A stretch of DNA of 64,000 nucleotides from Saprospirales bacterium (GTDB lineage: Bacteria; Bacteroidota; Bacteroidia; Chitinophagales; UBA8649): the NCBI GenBank assembly GCA_002708985.1, contig PAPS01000033.1:5803-69802 (forward strand), read 5' to 3'. Numbering within the stretch: the first letter of the stretch is position 1; every line of letters begins with the position of its first letter. The notes under the pieces were generated by a model that did not search any database, had not been told where the DNA came from, and saw only the letters and a list, made by a program, of their open reading frames with translations. This document shows positions 32,981 to 40,560 of this stretch, piece after piece. The position numbers were made by a program, and so were the translations under genes.

Positions 32981-34996
32981 CTATTTTATGCGGGACTGTG
33001 TCTTTATTTCCTCAATTAAAATCTCTTTGCTGTGCTCCGCGTCATGGTCTAGAGAGATTTCTAAATAGTTGCCGTCCCCAGCAACAGTCAAACTTTCCAT
33101 TCGTTCAAGTCCATTTGAATCGTTACCAAATCCCAATACTGATAATTTTATACCGTAGTCCTTATTATTTCGACGAACTACACGGAGCAGCTCTTGTTCG
33201 TTAAGAGTTAAGTGGTCATCGGTAAAAAGTCCGTCCGTGGCGAGTATGATTTGATTATTTCCTTCGGAAAGGAAGCTCCCTTGAATCAGTGCATACGCCG
33301 CTTCAATTCCTTTTACTCCGTATGTAAGTCCGGATGGCGTTAAACGGTTTACTTCATACTTTACCGCTTCCTTGTCAGATAGTGCAATCGATGAGAAGAT
33401 GGTGTCAGCCTTTGAGTTGTAGGTAATTAATCCAATTTGATCAAAATCTCTAAGGACGTCAATTAAGGTGGTTATAGATTTTTTAAGCTTAGCTATTTTC
33501 CCATGTTTTCGCATCGAAAAAGAAATGTCAATAAGAAAAATGAGATTGTTCTGTTTGTATAGCGCCTCATTGAGTTCTCCCCATTGATTGTAATCCGAAA
33601 GATCTTCATCAACTACAGTTTCTTCCTCGTAACCATTATCTTCTGAATTATTGGAGGTGTTCATAAAGCTTTCCATCCGTTCTTCTGGGGACATTTCACT
33701 TAATTGGATTTCTTCACTCGTTGCCTGTGTGGTGGTTAAAACATCCTCTTCAGAGCCTTCAGTATTTTCTTCACTGATTAAGGTTGTATCTTCCGACTCG
33801 GTGATGTCGATGTGGTTTTCCAATGATGTGTTTTCGTGGCTTGAATTCGTTTCAGATGCTACATCTGTCGAGGTAGGAGATAAATCGGCTTGCACATTTT
33901 CTTGAATAGCTATTGTTTCAAGCGAACTGCTCTCTTGAGAGCTAGGTGTATCTAGGGTAACTCCAACGTAAATAGGAGTCAGGTAAACCTCTTGAATTTC
34001 CGTAATCTTAGTGTCTATGGTCACTACCTTTTTTTCATAACCGCTGGCTTTAATTTCGGCCTCTGTGTTTTCTTTGGGCTGTCCAGTTCTCCAAATCCCC
34101 TCCTCGTCACTCTTACCCGACTCCAGAAGGTAGCCATCTACATTACGAACAAAAACATCTGCACGATAAATAGGCTGTTCGGTTACGATGTTTAAAATTT
34201 GGAATCCATAATCCACAAAACTTGGGTCATCTAAGTTGATTGGGTTCATGTCATAAGCTGCCAGAAGTGAATCATAGTTGATATCGTTCTCGTCGAAGGT
34301 CCGATCCATGCTAATTTGAATAACATCTGACCGATAAGTGTGGTCAAAATACATGGTTTGTGAAGCGTAGCCGTCACGCTCGAGGGTCATGTCAAAGCTT
34401 CCTTGTGGAAAGTTTTCGTTGAGTTGCCCTTCTTCATTGGTAGTCATGATAATTTCATCGGGATAATATTGAGACTTTAGTCGCACGCGCACGTTTTCTA
34501 AAGGACGATCAGTACGTTTGTCACGAACAAACAATGAAAGGTTGCTTATCGAGGTGGACTTGCCCTTTCTGTAGGCAGGACAAACACTGACGACATTTGG
34601 GGAAAAAGATAAAATGTTTCCCTTGATAATAACAGGAAATGGAGAGGATGATTCTTCGAAGTAAAGCGTTACAACTTCGTCAAACTTACCTTTTTGACCC
34701 GTATAAAACTCGATATAAAATGAGGCCGAATCTCCCGGTTGGATTCCGTAAGTTGGATAAAGAATATTTACGGAGGGTGTACTAGGCGTTCTTAAGAAGT
34801 GAAGCGTTTTGTCGCTTCCGTTGTATACGGTAAAGGTTGCTTTTGGATTGGACCAATTGGTTAGCCTTCCATAATCAAAAACTTCGGGGTGTATGGTAAC
34901 GACATCCGTAATGCTTTGGCTAATCGCACGTATTTGTATACCCAAAAGAAATGGAAGTAGTAGGATAAGTAAACACTTCTTTGGTTGCATATTCAT
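32981..34996 (-). CDS. Exported VWA protein with Ig-like/carboxypeptidase-regulatory-like domains and acidic linker
   Basis: Signal peptide, DUF1573-like N-domain, MIDAS DISFS...T...ATDG. Confidence 0.8.
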   Translation of the reverse strand: MNMQPKKCLLILLLPFLLGIQIRAISQSITDVVTIHPEVFDYGRLTNWSNPKATFTVYNGSDKTLHFLRTPSTPSVNILYPTYGIQPGDSASFYIEFYTGQKGKFDEVVTLYFEESSSPFPVIIKGNILSFSPNVVSVCPAYRKGKSTSISNLSLFVRDKRTDRPLENVRVRLKSQYYPDEIIMTTNEEGQLNENFPQGSFDMTLERDGYASQTMYFDHTYRSDVIQISMDRTFDENDINYDSLLAAYDMNPINLDDPSFVDYGFQILNIVTEQPIYRADVFVRNVDGYLLESGKSDEEGIWRTGQPKENTEAEIKASGYEKKVVTIDTKITEIQEVYLTPIYVGVTLDTPSSQESSSLETIAIQENVQADLSPTSTDVASETNSSHENTSLENHIDITESEDTTLISEENTEGSEEDVLTTTQATSEEIQLSEMSPEERMESFMNTSNNSEDNGYEEETVVDEDLSDYNQWGELNEALYKQNNLIFLIDISFSMRKHGKIAKLKKSITTLIDVLRDFDQIGLITYNSKADTIFSSIALSDKEAVKYEVNRLTPSGLTYGVKGIEAAYALIQGSFLSEGNNQIILATDGLFTDDHLTLNEQELLRVVRRNNKDYGIKLSVLGFGNDSNGLERMESLTVAGDGNYLEISLDHDAEHSKEILIEEIKTQSRIK

Positions 34997-35032
34997 AGTT
35001 TTACATTATCAGTGAAGTTACTTTCAAAATAC

Positions 35033-35761
35033 ATGCTTCAGATTAGTGGGTTTTTAGCATCAAGGCGTGGATGGGCTATTATAGTAGTCATTGTTTTACA
35101 CACAGTGGGTGGAATATGTATGGCTCTAGGCGATCCGATAGGTTTAGTTTTACTCACACCTGCGCACTTATGTATAACTACATTTATATTGTTTTCTATT
35201 CATCCTCCGCTCAATAGGGAATTCTACAAGGCAGCCTTTTTGACCTTCATGTTCGGTATGTTTATTGAGATTGTTGGAGTACGAACAGGTAATATATTTG
35301 GCGAGTATCATTATACACCTTTGCTCGGTCCTAGAGTTTTAGGAGTTCCTATTGTAATTGGTACAAATTGGTTGCTATTGTCTTATTGTTTTTCTGCGCT
35401 TGTTCTATGGTGGCGACCGTCTTCACGATGGTTGTATAAGGTGATTTTAGGCGGTGTGGGAATGGTGCTCCTAGACGTAATCATTGAACCTTTTGCTGTG
35501 CATTATGGTTTATGGATTTGGAAAGGCCGAGTTCTTCCTTCAATGGCTAATTACCTAGCATGGTTTTTGGGAGGATGCATTGTTACATCAATATGGTTGC
35601 GCTTCTGGCAAAAGCCTGCTAATCATCAAGTTAGGTTCTCAAAATCGACAGAGGTCGACAGAAATATTGATTTGATTGGCAATAATGACATTCTTCTCGT
35701 AACTATTTTGTCTTTAGTAGTGTTCTTAGTACTGAGTTCAGCAGGGATTATGCTGAATTAG
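35033..35761 (+). CDS. cruF: CruF-like (DUF422) carotenoid biosynthesis membrane protein
   Basis: EIVGVRTGNIFGEYHY, LGVPIVIGTNW, DVIIEPFA, NYLAW. Start refined to ATG 35033. Confidence 0.75.
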   Translation: MLQISGFLASRRGWAIIVVIVLHTVGGICMALGDPIGLVLLTPAHLCITTFILFSIHPPLNREFYKAAFLTFMFGMFIEIVGVRTGNIFGEYHYTPLLGPRVLGVPIVIGTNWLLLSYCFSALVLWWRPSSRWLYKVILGGVGMVLLDVIIEPFAVHYGLWIWKGRVLPSMANYLAWFLGGCIVTSIWLRFWQKPANHQVRFSKSTEVDRNIDLIGNNDILLVTILSLVVFLVLSSAGIMLN

Positions 35762-35768
35762 AGCTACA

Positions 35769-36641
35769 ATGGGAAAATATTCGATTAAAGATATTGAGAT
35801 GCTAACGGGCATCAAGGCGCATACCTTAAGGATATGGGAAAAGCGCTATGATATCGTCTCGGCAGAGAGAACGGATACGAATATCAGGTTTTACAGTGAC
35901 GCTCAACTTAAGACGCTTCTTAATATTGCCTTGCTTAATCAAAACGGTATAAAGATTAGCAAGATCGCATCTTTGTCACAGGACGAAATACGTCAGAGGG
36001 CCATGGAAATGGGTCTGATGCAAACAAGCGACAACTATTTTCAAGGTAAACTTATCGAGTTTATGATTGCCATGGATGAGTCTAAGTTCGAAGCAACTTA
36101 CGAATCAAGTATTCGAAAACTTGGATTTGTGCATCAAATTGAGTCTGTTTTGTATCCTTTCATGCGAAAGGTGGGAATGTTGTGGTCGACCGGATCGATA
36201 AATCCAGCACAAGAACATTTCGCCACAAACATCATTAAGCGGCGCATAATGCGTGAAATTGAGAAAACTAAGCGTTTAAACGAAAATCCTAAACGTTTCA
36301 TTCTTTTCTTACCTGAAGGAGAGCTTCATGAAATAGGGCTGTTGATCGCTGAATACATGCTCCGTATACATGGTGCAAGGACGCTTTACCTTGGTGCTTC
36401 TGTTCCCATAGAGGATTTGGATAAAGTTCATCAATCCTTTGTTCCGGAATATTATGTTACCTGTTTTATTGTAGAAGGTGTGGGCCGGTCAGTGCGTGAA
36501 GAGCTCAACTATATAAGTGGTAAATTTCCCAAGTCTGAGATATTGTATTTTGGTTCTTCGTTTTTATTATCTGACATTGATCCTCCAGCGAACTGTAACT
36601 ATCTTTCTTCTCTTCATCAACTTGATCAGTACGCCATCTAG
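35769..36641 (+). CDS. carH: MerR-family B12-binding photoreceptor/repressor (CarH/LitR)
   Basis: MerR HTH (HTLRIWEKRY), W-x9-EH (WSTGSINPAQEH), ExHxxG (ELHEIG). Confidence 0.88.
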   Translation: MGKYSIKDIEMLTGIKAHTLRIWEKRYDIVSAERTDTNIRFYSDAQLKTLLNIALLNQNGIKISKIASLSQDEIRQRAMEMGLMQTSDNYFQGKLIEFMIAMDESKFEATYESSIRKLGFVHQIESVLYPFMRKVGMLWSTGSINPAQEHFATNIIKRRIMREIEKTKRLNENPKRFILFLPEGELHEIGLLIAEYMLRIHGARTLYLGASVPIEDLDKVHQSFVPEYYVTCFIVEGVGRSVREELNYISGKFPKSEILYFGSSFLLSDIDPPANCNYLSSLHQLDQYAI

Positions 36642-36795
36642 CGTTTGATATTTTTTAAAGTTATACACATTCTCTAGGTGTTGCTAGAAGACAATTATAC
36701 CTCCCAATTGTTTGTTTAATGTCTACTGTAAACCATTCATTTTGTTTAATTTATTACCAATTTGAGTCATATTAAGTTGAACGAAACAACCATTA

Positions 36796-36825
36796 TGTTT
36801 AACTAAATGTGGAAATAATTAAACA
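36796..36825. promoter_or_regulatory. Putative CarH operator 1
   Basis: TGTTTAA-N16-TTAAACA. Confidence 0.7.
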
Positions 36826-36861
36826 AAAAGTTGGGAAAATTGTCGCTTTTATGAAATATTC

Positions 36862-36891
36862 TGTTTAAGTTTAAGTCTGAAAAGTTAAACA
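36862..36891. promoter_or_regulatory. Putative CarH operator 2
   Basis: TGTTTAA-N16-TTAAACA, 66 bp after operator 1 and ending on the A of the sigma ATG. Confidence 0.7.
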
Positions 36892-37400
36892 TGTCTACAC
36901 GAGTATTTATAACACAAGTTGGGGAAATCGAAAGTTTTCTGCGTTCATTTGCACTTAGCCTAACTCAAAATCAAAGTGATTCTGACGATCTTGTTCAGGA
37001 CACTCTTCATCGAGCCATGAGAAATCTAGATAAGTACAAGGACGGTACAAATTTCCGTGCCTGGATGGCTACAATTATGAAGAATATCTTCATTAATAAC
37101 TACCGTCGCAAGTCTCGTCAAAACACTATGCTTGATGGATTAGATGAGCGCACAAGTACTGTCATTGATCGCAATCATTTCGAGATTAATACGGCATCAA
37201 GTAACTTGAGTGAAGAACTGATTGTTAATGAAATTGACGCGCTGAAGGATGATTTACGCCTTCCATTCCTTATGCATGTTGATGGTTTTAAATATGAAGA
37301 AATTGCCTTGCAACTTGACGTTCCTTTAGGAACAATCAAAAGTAGGATTTTTCATGCGCGACGTATACTTCGATTGCGTTTAACCAAACTAGGATATTAA
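36891..37400 (+). CDS. ECF sigma factor heading the crt operon
   Basis: DDLVQDT, NFRAWMATIMKNIFIN, YEEIA...PLGTIKSRIFHAR. Confidence 0.92.
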   Translation: MSTRVFITQVGEIESFLRSFALSLTQNQSDSDDLVQDTLHRAMRNLDKYKDGTNFRAWMATIMKNIFINNYRRKSRQNTMLDGLDERTSTVIDRNHFEINTASSNLSEELIVNEIDALKDDLRLPFLMHVDGFKYEEIALQLDVPLGTIKSRIFHARRILRLRLTKLGY

Positions 37401-38905
37401 TGTCGAAAGCCCTTGTCATAGGATCTGGATTCGCCGGCATCAGTGCCGCATCGCATCTCGCTCAAAAGGGATATGAGGTCAAGGTTCTAGAAAAAAATGA
37501 GGGCGCTGGTGGACGTTGTTCGGTATGGCACAAGGATGGTTTTACTTTTGATATGGGGCCATCTTGGTATTGGATGCCTGATGTATTTGATCGATATTTT
37601 AATCAATTTGGTAAACAAGTTCAAGATTATTACCACTTAGATCGTTTAGATCCAGGCTATAGAGTTTTTTTTCCGGAAGATCTTCGCGTTGACATTCCCG
37701 GTAACGAAATGGAGCTCTTCCAACTTTTTGACAGATTAGAGGAGAATGGTGGCAACAAGCTAAAGATCTTTCTTAATAACGCGAAGGCAAAATATGAGGC
37801 TGGTATGAATGACCTAGTTCATAGACCTTCTATTTCATTCACAGAGTTTATTGACTTTTCAATTGTAAAGCAGGTTCCGAAGCTTAAGTTGTTTACTTCC
37901 CTCACGGCAGAGATAAGTAGCCTCTTCACAAGTGAGGCAGCGCGCAAGCTATTGGAGTTTCCTGCTTATTTTCTTGGGGCTTTACCAAAAGATACACCTG
38001 CGCTATATAGCTTGATGAATTATGCTGACTTATCGCTCGGCACGTGGTATCCTCAAGGGGGAATGCATCAAATTATCAAAGGCATGGTTTCTTTGGCTGA
38101 AGAGTTAGGTGTTCATTTTGAATATAATGCGGAGGTTGAAAAAATATTAGTTGATGAGAACGGTCGTGCTCGTGGTGTGTCAGTGAATGAAATAACCTAT
38201 GAAGCTGACCTTATTGTTGCAGGTGCCGATTATCATCATGTTGAGTCAAAGCTTTTAGAACCTAAGTGGAGAAATTACCGGGAGGGTTTTTGGGATAAGC
38301 AGGTTATGGCACCTTCTTCTTTAATCTACTACTTAGGTATAGATAAGCGATTGGATAATCTATTACATCATAACCTTTTCTTTGACGAGGACATTGAGCA
38401 GTTTGGCTCAGATATATACAGTAAGCCTCAATGGCCTGAAAAACCACTATTTTATGTTTGTTGTCCATCAAAGACGGACACTTCGGTTGCTCCAAAAGGT
38501 AAAGAAAACGTGTTTTTGCTAATGCCTCTTGCTCCAGATCTTGAAGACACCGAATCTTTGAGAGAAAAGCGTTTCAAATTCATGGTTGATAAGTTAGAGA
38601 CCATTACGGGGACAAGTGTACACGATGCTATTTCCGTTAAACGAGGTTTTTGCATAAATGACTTTAAGTCGCGATATCATGCCTATCGTGGGAATGCCTA
38701 TGGACTAGCTAATACTTTACGGCAAACTGCTATATTCAAGCCTAAGATGATTAATAAGAAGGTGAATAATCTATTTTACACTGGGCAACTTACGGTACCC
38801 GGCCCAGGTGTTCCCCCTAGTCTTATTTCAGGCGAGGTTGTGGCAAATTATATCAGTAATAAGATTCCTTTAACGCAAAAAGAAACCTATGATGCACTTG
38901 CATGA
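37400..38905 (+). CDS. crtI: Phytoene desaturase
   Basis: IGSGFAG, FDMGPSWYWMPD, TGQLTVPGPGVPPSLISG. Confidence 0.93.
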   Translation: MSKALVIGSGFAGISAASHLAQKGYEVKVLEKNEGAGGRCSVWHKDGFTFDMGPSWYWMPDVFDRYFNQFGKQVQDYYHLDRLDPGYRVFFPEDLRVDIPGNEMELFQLFDRLEENGGNKLKIFLNNAKAKYEAGMNDLVHRPSISFTEFIDFSIVKQVPKLKLFTSLTAEISSLFTSEAARKLLEFPAYFLGALPKDTPALYSLMNYADLSLGTWYPQGGMHQIIKGMVSLAEELGVHFEYNAEVEKILVDENGRARGVSVNEITYEADLIVAGADYHHVESKLLEPKWRNYREGFWDKQVMAPSSLIYYLGIDKRLDNLLHHNLFFDEDIEQFGSDIYSKPQWPEKPLFYVCCPSKTDTSVAPKGKENVFLLMPLAPDLEDTESLREKRFKFMVDKLETITGTSVHDAISVKRGFCINDFKSRYHAYRGNAYGLANTLRQTAIFKPKMINKKVNNLFYTGQLTVPGPGVPPSLISGEVVANYISNKIPLTQKETYDALA

Positions 38906-39725
38906 TCGCTGTGGTGAGCTAACTAGTATTATGATGGCAAAGCAATACAGCACGTCATTTAGTTTAGGTATCCGTATGTTAGATAAGCCCTTGCGCTTTC
39001 CAATCTCTGCGATTTATGGATTTACGCGTGCAGCAGATGAAATCGTTGACACCTTTCATGATTACGATAAGCAGGCTTTGCTCGGGCGTTTTAAAAAGGA
39101 AACTTACCTCGCGATTGATGAGGGCATAAGCACTAATCCAATATTACACAGTTTCCAACGAATTGTTACTAGATACAATATTGAACGAGAGGTTATTGAG
39201 GCGTTTTTCACTTCTATGGAGATGGATTTACATAAATCCACATATACATCAGAAGACTACAATATCTATATCTATGGAAGTGCAGAAGTTGTAGGTTTAA
39301 TGTGTTTGAGTGTTTTTGTTAACGGTAATAAAGAAATGTACAATGATTTGCTTTACGGGGCAAAGATGCTCGGCAGTGCTTTTCAAAAAGTCAACTTTCT
39401 GAGAGATATTCAGGATGATGCGGAGGACAAAGGCAGGGTTTACTTTCCTGGAGTGAGCTTTGATAATTTTACAGAGCAGGATAAAGAAATCATTGAACAA
39501 GATATCCAACGTGAGTTCGATGAGTCGTTGGAGTATATCAAAAGACTTCCAACCTCTGCTCGCTTTGGTGTCTTTGTTGCTTACAACTACTACCAAAGGT
39601 TATTCAACAAAATAAAGCGAACCCCTGCAAGTCAGATTGCTATTCAGCGCATAAGAATTCCAAATACAAGGAAGTTTACTATGCTTGGACGATTATGGTT
39701 ATTTAATCAGTTAGGCGCAGTTTAG
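38889..39725 (+). CDS. crtB: Phytoene synthase
   Basis: YSTSFSLG, ADEIVD, YIYGSAEVVGLMC, VNFLRDI. Confidence 0.94.
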   Translation: MMHLHDRCGELTSIMMAKQYSTSFSLGIRMLDKPLRFPISAIYGFTRAADEIVDTFHDYDKQALLGRFKKETYLAIDEGISTNPILHSFQRIVTRYNIEREVIEAFFTSMEMDLHKSTYTSEDYNIYIYGSAEVVGLMCLSVFVNGNKEMYNDLLYGAKMLGSAFQKVNFLRDIQDDAEDKGRVYFPGVSFDNFTEQDKEIIEQDIQREFDESLEYIKRLPTSARFGVFVAYNYYQRLFNKIKRTPASQIAIQRIRIPNTRKFTMLGRLWLFNQLGAV

Positions 39726-39765
39726 CCCGTTAGGCGGAGTCGGCCCCTTTGCTTATCTTGCTACA

Positions 39766-40560
39766 GTGAAGATTTTGCTCAGATATCTAGCCTTTGTTGG
39801 TTGTTTGATGGCAACGTTGCCCGCTATTGGACAGAGCAACGTGGAAGATATTCTCGGTCTATCTTCGGACGAGGCGGGTTTTAGACAGCATGAGTTAAAT
39901 TTTGGCAGTCGTTTTCATACAAATGGTTATTCTGCTTTCCTGGAGAAAGTTTGGTTCAAGACCTACAAGAAAAGCCGCCTACTTCAAATAGAATATTTCC
40001 ATTTCAAAGACATGCGTGAGCGGAAGCAGGAAAGTCTTTACAGTGCATGTAATCCAAAACGCTATTTTTTTGGAAAGAAGAATTCTTTTTTTTCTCTGCA
40101 TACTGCTATGGGTCAACGAAGGCTTCTCGCAAAGAAAGCTGATCGATTGGGAGTTAGCATATCCTACGACTGGCTTTTGGGTTTTTCGTTGGGATTTGAA
40201 AAGCCTTACTATTTGGAAATGATTGACGATAAGGATGGAGATAACCTTATTAATTGCACCAAAGATCATGAACCTGAGCGATATTCTGAATCAAATGCTT
40301 CAAGATTTCTTGCCCGTCAAGAGATTTATGGGGCTGCAAGAATAGGGCTCGGTTTCACTGAGATAAAGCCTGTTCCTGGGCTTCATGGAAAAATTGGACT
40401 TCACTTTGATTGGGCCACTGATGCCTCTTTTGTCAAAGCGCTCGATGCCGGTATCTCTTTGGATATATATTATCGCCGGCTTGATGTAATGGTTGCTGAA
40501 ACAAATAAGCCTATAATTTTTAATTTATACCTCGGATTTCTTCTGGGAAAGAGATATTGA
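39766..40560 (+). CDS. Predicted outer-membrane beta-barrel protein, unknown function
   Basis: GTG start, signal peptide, alternating strands, C-terminal NLYLGFLLGKRY. Confidence 0.7.
   Translation: MKILLRYLAFVGCLMATLPAIGQSNVEDILGLSSDEAGFRQHELNFGSRFHTNGYSAFLEKVWFKTYKKSRLLQIEYFHFKDMRERKQESLYSACNPKRYFFGKKNSFFSLHTAMGQRRLLAKKADRLGVSISYDWLLGFSLGFEKPYYLEMIDDKDGDNLINCTKDHEPERYSESNASRFLARQEIYGAARIGLGFTEIKPVPGLHGKIGLHFDWATDASFVKALDAGISLDIYYRRLDVMVAETNKPIIFNLYLGFLLGKRY

Follow-up and report, generated by a model that had tools for sequence, protein, structure and literature searches.

Organization of the carH-sigma locus

The stretch of DNA considered here (64,000 nucleotides of Saprospirales bacterium contig PAPS01000033.1, referred to below as the window) encodes a regulator of the CarH type, i.e., a relative of the adenosylcobalamin (AdoCbl)-dependent photoreceptor-repressors, together with a downstream set of carotenoid genes on the same (+) strand. 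The carH-like gene (35769-36641) specifies a candidate repressor of 290 aa, composed of a MerR winged helix, a four-helix bundle and a Rossmann-type B12-binding domain. It is followed by a gene for an extracytoplasmic function (ECF) sigma factor (36891-37400, with Sigma70_r2 and r4_2 domains), the first gene of the putatively regulated operon, whose stop codon overlaps the start of crtI (37400-38905). The latter encodes a CrtID-type phytoene desaturase (713.8 bits against the NCBIfam model CrtID, over its cut-off) and precedes crtB (38889-39725), a phytoene synthase gene recognized by Pfam SQS_PSY. The 249-bp intergenic region between carH and the sigma gene houses two palindromes with identical arms. 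From the sequence comparisons described below, we consider it about 80% probable that these palindromes are operators for the adjacent CarH-type photoreceptor-repressor, and that CarH itself is the protein that binds them.

Both palindromes match TGTTTAA-N16-TTAAACA exactly. The distal one (op1, 36796-36825) has its arms at 36796-36802 and 36819-36825, and the proximal one (op2, 36862-36891) at 36862-36868 and 36885-36891. They are 66 bp apart from start to start, with 36 bp between their edges, and the last base of op2 (an A, 36891) doubles as the first base of the sigma-factor ATG. Two additional unpaired copies of the half-site, both reading TTTGTTTAAT on the + strand, lie further upstream at 36741-36750 (119 bp before op2), a possible auxiliary site, and at 36711-36720 (149 bp before op2), the latter being less conserved. 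The pair of inverted repeats and the two copies of TTTGTTTAAT had been pointed out in a first-pass annotation of this DNA, and the sequence agrees with it on both.

The complete motif occurred twice in the 64-kb window, compared with a mean of 0.00 exact matches in 100 dinucleotide-preserving shuffles. Even when up to two mismatches were tolerated, the scan of the window returned op1 and op2 and no further copies, the shuffle mean then being 0.64. The bare heptamer was not enriched over the window as a whole (17 found, 16.5 expected), and 6 of the 17 copies were concentrated in positions 36713-36891.

Conservation of the palindromes beside carH

The flanking regions of carH were compared in 80 genome loci, picked by CarH homology alone (40-46% identity), from Algoriphagus and other Cyclobacteriaceae, Roseivirga, Marinoscillum, Pontibacter, Fulvivirga and others. 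In 62 of the 80 the carH gene was followed by a sigma factor gene, usually with crtI and crtB next. In 57 of these 62 loci a site with at most one mismatch lay no more than 200 bp upstream of the sigma gene, and a distal site was present in 46 of the 62. The density of sites upstream of the sigma gene was 7.0 per kb, versus 0.028 per kb in the other 633 kb of these loci, i.e., an enrichment of about 250-fold. A further group of about 11 loci combined carH, the motif and crtI without a sigma gene (L054, L112, L114, L119, L122, L127, L145, L160, L172, L187 and L192).

The closest relative, a marine metagenome-assembled genome (MAG) labelled Chitinophagales (L003), encodes a CarH 96% identical to that of the window and has both palindromes, likewise 66 bp apart. 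Its op2 is nearly identical to that of the window; the arms of op1 are kept against a background of divergence in the op1 spacer and the DNA around it. At 53% CarH identity (L001), two palindromes of the same 7-16-7 design lie 54 bp apart, directly before the sigma gene. The arms remained near-invariant down to about 31-45% CarH identity while the spacers diverged, and palindromes beside carH were kept in Cytophagales, Chitinophagales and Flavobacteriia-type loci. The resulting consensus is tttTGTTTAA-N16-TTAAACAaaa, with an AT-rich, poorly conserved spacer. Because it is conserved in such distant relatives, the element is far beyond what chance would produce.

Unusual forms were seen in two loci. 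A carH-sigma locus lacking a 7-16-7 site (L038) carries instead TGTTTAA-N6-TTAAACA (7-6-7) and an abutted TGTTTATTTAAACA (7-0-7); these variants are one or two helical turns shorter and resemble the compact palindrome of classical MerR proteins. In L070 we observed TGTTTAAACA plus a 7-17-7 variant. Several MAG records among L016-L082 bear taxon labels that are hard to believe (for example, 'Bifidobacteriaceae' for L038 and 'Agrobacterium' for L080), which suggests binning or labelling errors.

The unpaired upstream heptamers also recur. They were found 119-150 bp upstream of the proximal operator in 35 of 53 loci, the window included, at about -149/-150 and at -119 to -131 relative to that operator. 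They are of the left-arm type in the window and of the right-arm type in Algoriphagus (TTAAACA at -149/-150). In L003 the block around the 36741 half-site (approximately 36728-36753) differs by one base, and the other half-site (36711-36720) reads TTTGTTCAAC, so that only the 36741 copy is fully kept in the closest relative. The unpaired heptamers may be auxiliary sites. A 19-nt inverted repeat (36702-36720 and 36818-36836, 17 of 19 positions matching) adds TCCCAA to the first upstream half-site and TTGGGA to the right arm of op1. It was dropped as a separate feature, as it is not conserved in L003, and may be a relic of a local duplication.

Half-site, arrangement and phasing

The known target of CarH provides a direct comparison for the arms. 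TnnACA forms the core of the 11-bp repeat that is read by each CarH DNA-binding domain, with binding on one face of the DNA (PMC9304148, PMC8156234). In the palindromes TAAACA, which conforms to TnnACA, is read from the top strand in the right arm and from the bottom strand in the left arm. Among 108 sites, chosen by arm match, TnnACA was present at the arm positions in 104 and 103, whereas TnnACA or TGTnnA occurred at any single spacer position in no more than 7. The earlier proposals that the half-site fits CarH and that the operator is inverted rather than purely tandem were thereby supported, the former in the arms and the latter by the composition of the spacer. A search of the spacer for tandem 11-bp repeats found none. 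The ACA contributed by some of the Algoriphagus -7 boxes (TACATTTG) is unconstrained in position and variable between loci.

Adjacent sites are separated by a restricted set of distances. Over all loci these were 34-35, 41-46 (44 bp in 30 loci), 50-58 and 62-66 bp, with none at 36-40, 47-49 or 59-61 bp. A Rayleigh test of the distinct spacings against random draws gave p ~0.0008 for a period of 10-11 bp. Spacings in steps of about 10 bp indicate that adjacent sites are probably bound cooperatively, from one side of the helix. The 66 bp of the window, described earlier as 6 x 11, was measured correctly, but it is one case within this broader series. With 36 bp between their edges, a true loop between op1 and op2 seems unlikely, and looping is the less likely arrangement compared with side-by-side binding on one face. 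Looping via the upstream half-sites, at distances of 119-150 bp, is conceivable, if speculative.

Position relative to the promoter

The housekeeping promoter of Bacteroidota has the consensus TTTG-N19-TAnnTTTG (-33/-7). In the window a -7-like box, TAAGTTTA (36866-36873, + strand), lies inside op2 and departs from TAnnTTTG by one mismatch. The nearest candidate for the -33 element is a TTG at 36840-36842, with an over-long spacer of 23 nt. The observation that op2 covers a -7-like box and touches the ATG therefore holds at the coordinates of both elements. At the homologous position, L001 and L063 have TAAGTTTG, a perfect TAnnTTTG, while L003 shares TAAGTTTA with the window; in L001, a TTTG is located 20 nt upstream of the -7 box.

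The two arrangements differ in how promoter and operators are interleaved. In loci of the Algoriphagus type the order is op1, 3-5 nt, TTTG, and 19 nt that include the left arm of op2, followed by a perfect TAnnTTTG in the op2 spacer, the right arm, 10-20 nt and the ATG. The predicted -33 box is thus situated between the two operators, with op1 abutting it. In the clade of the window, the -7 box and the left arm of op2 share bases. The predicted -7 box falls within op2 in every clade examined, and in either arrangement a protein bound to op2 would exclude RNA polymerase.

The adjacent regulator

The N-terminal part of the window regulator (residues 4-70) matches MerR_1 of Pfam with an E-value of 1.5e-13, and B12-binding_2 (Pfam) was matched as well. 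Alignment with CarH of Thermus thermophilus (TtCarH) gave an E-value of 2.5e-23 with an overall identity of about 25%. Residues W139-x9-E149-H150, corresponding to the Wx9EH motif of the four-helix bundle (the adenosyl cap), align with those of TtCarH and are invariant in 14 homologues. Similarly, E185-L-H187-E-I-G190 aligns to the ERHEIG of TtCarH, with H187 at the position of the lower axial histidine (D/ExHxxG); the SxT and GG parts of the motif are loosely kept. An AlphaFold2 (AF2) model of the protein (pLDDT 88, pTM 0.83) returned TtCarH chains as all of its top 50 matches in the Protein Data Bank (PDB), and its B12 domain contains five beta strands, with a TM-score of up to 0.76 versus TtCarH. 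By all of the features of sequence and predicted fold that could be tested, the window protein is a member, if a distant one, of the CarH family.

LRxWExRY and RT...RxY are common to the window regulator and TtCarH, and hardly any variation is seen across 100 homologues in the recognition helix and wing (GIKAHTLRIWEQRY and RTDTNIRYY). The invariance of the DNA-binding domain extends to Flavobacteriia-type proteins of only 31-40% overall identity, and parallels that of the arms. A 342-nt metatranscriptome contig that is identical to positions 35734-36073 (carH) shows that the gene is transcribed in the sea. It was the sole matching contig when four metatranscriptomes from the same samples were compared with positions 35700-39800.

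Genes preceded by the motif outside the carH loci

Metagenome contigs were scanned for TTGTTTAA-N16-TTAAACAA, which yielded at least 120 loci (L083-L202). Among the matches listed, about 29 were crt, carH or sigma loci, and 126 of 130 exact sites (97%) were intergenic, only 4 lying inside long open reading frames (ORFs). Isolated heptamers in the same contigs were inside long ORFs in 63% of cases and intergenic in 37%, with long ORFs making up 76% of the bases. Sites preceded crtI with or without a sigma gene, and occurred at divergent promoters in either orientation.

Several of the downstream gene families are related to light. DNA photolyase genes followed the motif in at least 4 loci, in addition to which one contig (L086:5040-6938) has a motif-controlled ECF sigma gene and then a photolyase gene in place of crtI, thus tying the sigma factor to a light response beyond carotenoids. 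Genes for 6-pyruvoyl-tetrahydropterin synthase (PTPS), with or without GTP cyclohydrolase I (folE), followed it in at least 4 loci, and GTP cyclohydrolase I alone in at least 2, plus the genome locus L012. Photolyase, folE and carotenoid genes are typical of LitR/CarH light regulons in other phyla, as in the LitR systems of Pseudomonas and Burkholderia. The motif scan for light-regulated genes that had been suggested earlier was thus positive for photolyase and pterin genes outside the window, but not within it: a search of the 64-kb window for photolyase, folE, PTPS, fasciclin and TetR_C_23 genes found none.

The commonest non-carotenoid gene directly downstream encoded a fasciclin-domain protein (at least 11 loci, and 11 of 92 downstream proteins among the matches listed). 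Some of these proteins carry a type IX secretion tail; examples of the group are L093:852, L100:36 and L171:12816. We are not aware that fasciclin proteins have been firmly connected with light in Bacteroidota. In Mycobacterium kansasii, fasciclin genes are induced by light (PMC9861118). TonB-dependent receptor genes (CarboxypepD_reg, Plug and barrel; L184:10044, L123, L159, L200, L201:4588-4659 and L107:2638-2708) followed the motif in at least 5 loci, with others divergent from sigma-crt. They could be genes for the uptake of B12 or another cofactor, controlled by the same switch. The remaining categories comprised short-chain dehydrogenases and DUF2805 (at least 3 loci each), DUF4397 with a type IX secretion tail (at least 2, plus the genome locus L029), flavin reductase (at least 2), and an operon encoding a TetR_C_23 protein, an ABC1/UbiB-like kinase and a flavin reductase. 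The last was found in at least 4 loci (L135:965-5367, L165, L166 and L168), with the motif about 30 nt upstream; in L135 the operon is followed by a photolyase-related (DPRP) gene.

Identity of the binding protein and alternative explanations

The most serious rival for the role of binder is the TetR_C_23-family protein just mentioned. In general terms, the palindromes could be bound by another trans-acting dimeric regulator, either of this family or one yet to be recognized, with carH a mere neighbour in the crt cluster; we regard this as unlikely, though it deserves more weight than the other alternatives. The position of the motif some 30 nt upstream of the TetR_C_23 gene in those four or more metagenome loci looks like autoregulation, the majority of motif sites among the matches listed are not beside carH, and a light-induced Chryseobacterium was reported to be without car and lit genes (PMC7064467). 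However, no TetR_C_23 gene was located within 4 kb of carH in any of the 80 loci, whereas the motif is, and the TetR_C_23 gene, heading an ABC1 kinase-flavin reductase operon beside a photolyase-related gene, looks like a target. A half-site separation of 23 bp with an unconserved spacer is ill-suited to a single TetR dimer and matches the DR1-DR3 spacing of CarH; moreover, the arms match TnnACA, the DNA-binding domain of CarH varies as little as the arms do, and some of the sites lie directly upstream of carH (L114, L192, L020 and L045). The latter sites in turn suggest autoregulation of carH. Much less probable is that the arms serve the downstream ECF sigma factor as -35 and -10 elements, with a spacer of 16 bp, in a promoter through which it activates its own gene. 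ECF promoters typically have spacers of 16-17 bp, the motif precedes the sigma gene in the 57 of 62 loci, and sigma-crt or sigma-photolyase operons whose available flank contains no carH are preceded by it as well. Recognition by a sigma factor would not call for arms that are exact reverse complements, however, nor do the tandem pairs of sites, the approximately 11 loci in which the motif precedes crtI or carH without a sigma gene, or the canonical housekeeping-type -33/-7 promoter interleaved with the sites fit this explanation. In addition, both in the window and in a photolyase locus (L190) the right arm runs up to or into the start codon, such that transcription initiated past a '-10' element there would start inside the gene.

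An explanation at the level of RNA, in which the inverted repeats would form hairpins that attenuate or terminate read-through from carH, appears slighter still. A sigma-70 promoter and terminator scan revealed no intrinsic terminator between carH and the sigma gene, so that both repeats would be carried on any read-through transcript. The stems would nevertheless be weak (seven A/U-rich pairs with 16-nt loops), the predicted fold of the region is no better than that of shuffled sequence (z -1.3), no Rfam match was obtained, the arms are kept in sequence with no compensatory changes, and the sites occur at divergent promoters in both orientations. Finally, the region is AT-rich and the heptamer alone is at its expected frequency in the window, as would be the case for a low-complexity repeat that arose by chance and has no function. 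The conservation data refute this: the enrichment of about 250-fold at the homologous position over 62 loci, the lack of exact matches in 100 shuffles and the intergenic location of 97% of the sites, versus 37% of isolated heptamers among the matches listed, all oppose it.

Several observations weigh against CarH as the binder. The regulator would act in trans at most sites, and adjacency to carH is consequently no proof of its binding; some sigma-crt loci with the motif (L086, L107, L163 and L201) have no carH in the available 1-9 kb of flank; and the TetR-family gene is itself preceded by the motif. The tandem 11-bp direct repeats of known CarH operators (nnnnTnnACAn) are absent, the half-sites being inverted and 23 bp apart, and the predicted promoter of the window has an imperfect -7 box with 23-nt spacing to its -33 candidate. 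For the protein, TransRegCarH (NCBIfam NF052513) was the best match, but its 111.7 bits are under the 400-bit cut-off, indicating a distant member rather than an equivalog of the curated set, and Pfam PF02310 went undetected in the window regulator at E <= 0.001, though it was found in homologues. No description of a CarH/LitR operator from Bacteroidota appeared in the searchable literature, subscription-only papers being outside the search. The original designation of a candidate Bacteroidota CarH site is supported by, among other points, the CarH-type neighbour and the palindromes kept beside carH.

Neighbouring genes

A cruF-like carotenoid gene (34985-35761, + strand; Pfam Caroten_synth) ends 8 bp upstream of carH and is probably co-transcribed with it; the order cruF then carH is kept in most loci. 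No copy of the motif was present upstream of cruF-carH in the window. The mechanically called ORF, with a TTG start at 34985, overlaps the start of a divergent VWA-domain gene (32981-34996). The cruF gene call in L002 is 242 aa, and the true start of the gene is therefore probably further downstream. Beyond crtB, a 264-aa ORF (39766-40560) had no Pfam or NCBIfam match, and a protein of 89% identity is encoded at the same position in L003. No anti-sigma gene was seen beside the ECF sigma gene in the window or in related loci, and the activity of the sigma factor is thus presumably set by transcription alone. The sigma-70 promoter scan gave one consensus match, on the reverse strand, fewer than in shuffled sequences.

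Comparison with known systems

The known CarH operators are built of three or four 11-bp direct repeats in tandem and measure about 33-44 bp altogether; in the complex of TtCarH with DNA, DR1 and DR3, which are 22 bp apart, are both contacted by a single head-to-tail dimer (PMC9304148). The CarH (LitR) proteins of T. thermophilus and Bacillus megaterium, which are AdoCbl-dependent repressors of carotenoid synthesis, share with the window system the three-part architecture, the location of the gene beside crt, the TnnACA half-site, an operator placed over the promoter and sites on one face of the DNA. In contrast, the unit in the window is an inverted pair, whose half-sites start 23 bp apart and enclose an AT-rich spacer that is not conserved, and the Bacteroidota units are arranged in phased pairs 34-66 bp apart, at a promoter of the -33/-7 type.

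The carB (Pcrt) operator of Myxococcus xanthus, controlled by CarA/CarH, resembles the present pair in being bipartite (about 55 bp) and occupied cooperatively by two dimers, and inverted repeats were first noted there as well. CarA/CarH was later judged to read direct repeats, however, and the palindromes are not conserved among myxobacteria, whereas in Bacteroidota the palindromic arms are the conserved feature. Furthermore, neither a CarS antirepressor nor a CarA paralogue was seen in the window.

In Streptomyces, a B12-dependent LitR/CarH represses the promoter of an ECF sigma factor (LitS) in the dark, and the sigma factor drives the carotenoid genes (PMC11519972). The window is similar in that an ECF sigma gene is the first after op2, with carH immediately before. 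The two genes are arranged in tandem and not divergently, no gene for an anti-sigma factor lies close by, and the LitS-type promoter consensus (GCATCCR-N15-CVGAAD) is unrelated to the motif. Because sigma, crtI and crtB form one operon in the window, CarH would also control crt directly, unlike the situation in Streptomyces.

The operators of classical MerR proteins (MerR, SoxR and CueR) are likewise palindromes within or over a promoter and are read by a winged helix. They are compact sites of about 18-22 bp, positioned in a -35/-10 spacer of 19-20 bp, and act by DNA distortion. The half-sites in the window, by comparison, are two helical turns apart.

Proposed mechanism and implications

If CarH is the binder, each arm (TTAAACA) would present a TnnACA element to a single DNA-binding domain of CarH. 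With 23 bp, or about two helical turns, from one arm start to the next, a palindrome comes near the 22 bp between DR1 and DR3 of TtCarH, but in inverted orientation. In the dark, AdoCbl-bound CarH oligomers would sit cooperatively on op2 and op1, the latter being located some six helical turns further upstream, on approximately the same side of the helix. CarH on op2 would cover the -7 box together with the predicted start of transcription and the A of the ATG, and together the two occupied sites would keep RNA polymerase off the sigma-crtI-crtB promoter. Light would photolyse AdoCbl, whereupon the CarH oligomer would fall apart and the operon would be transcribed. The co-transcribed ECF sigma factor would probably turn on or amplify the expression of further genes, as LitS does in Streptomyces.

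Although a repressor site beside the gene of its repressor is ordinary in principle, this operator architecture is unreported in the searchable literature, where no relevant paper was found for the motif string TTAAACA. For a Chryseobacterium strain that becomes pigmented in light, a 2020 paper gave the mechanism in the strain as unknown (PMC7064467). As a tentative extension, which we hold to be somewhat doubtful, Bacteroidota CarH might adopt a DNA-binding geometry new to the family, with symmetric head-to-tail dimers on inverted half-sites two helical turns apart, and with paired units and auxiliary half-sites some 120-150 bp upstream assembled on one face of the DNA or with the DNA wrapped, and might govern a phylum-wide, B12-dependent light regulon.

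CarH serves as the model B12 photoreceptor and as an optogenetic tool. To our knowledge, its operators have so far been defined only in Thermus, Bacillus and the myxobacteria, and all are tandem direct repeats. Conserved half-sites that are inverted and widely spaced would therefore widen the known plasticity of DNA recognition by CarH, and the 30-bp operator would serve as a compact part for light-controlled expression in Bacteroidota. The motif would also provide a sequence-defined candidate regulon for light-induced pigmentation and photorepair in this phylum. Such a regulon would comprise carotenoid synthesis, photolyases, pterin synthesis, fasciclin proteins and TonB-dependent receptors, with the ECF sigma factor as an amplifier. 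Many marine Bacteroidota require B12 from external sources. If such a B12-dependent regulon exists, the supply of B12 would gate the light response of abundant marine and freshwater Bacteroidota, and a response gated in this manner, possibly with TonB uptake genes among its members, would tie the availability of the vitamin to photoprotection.

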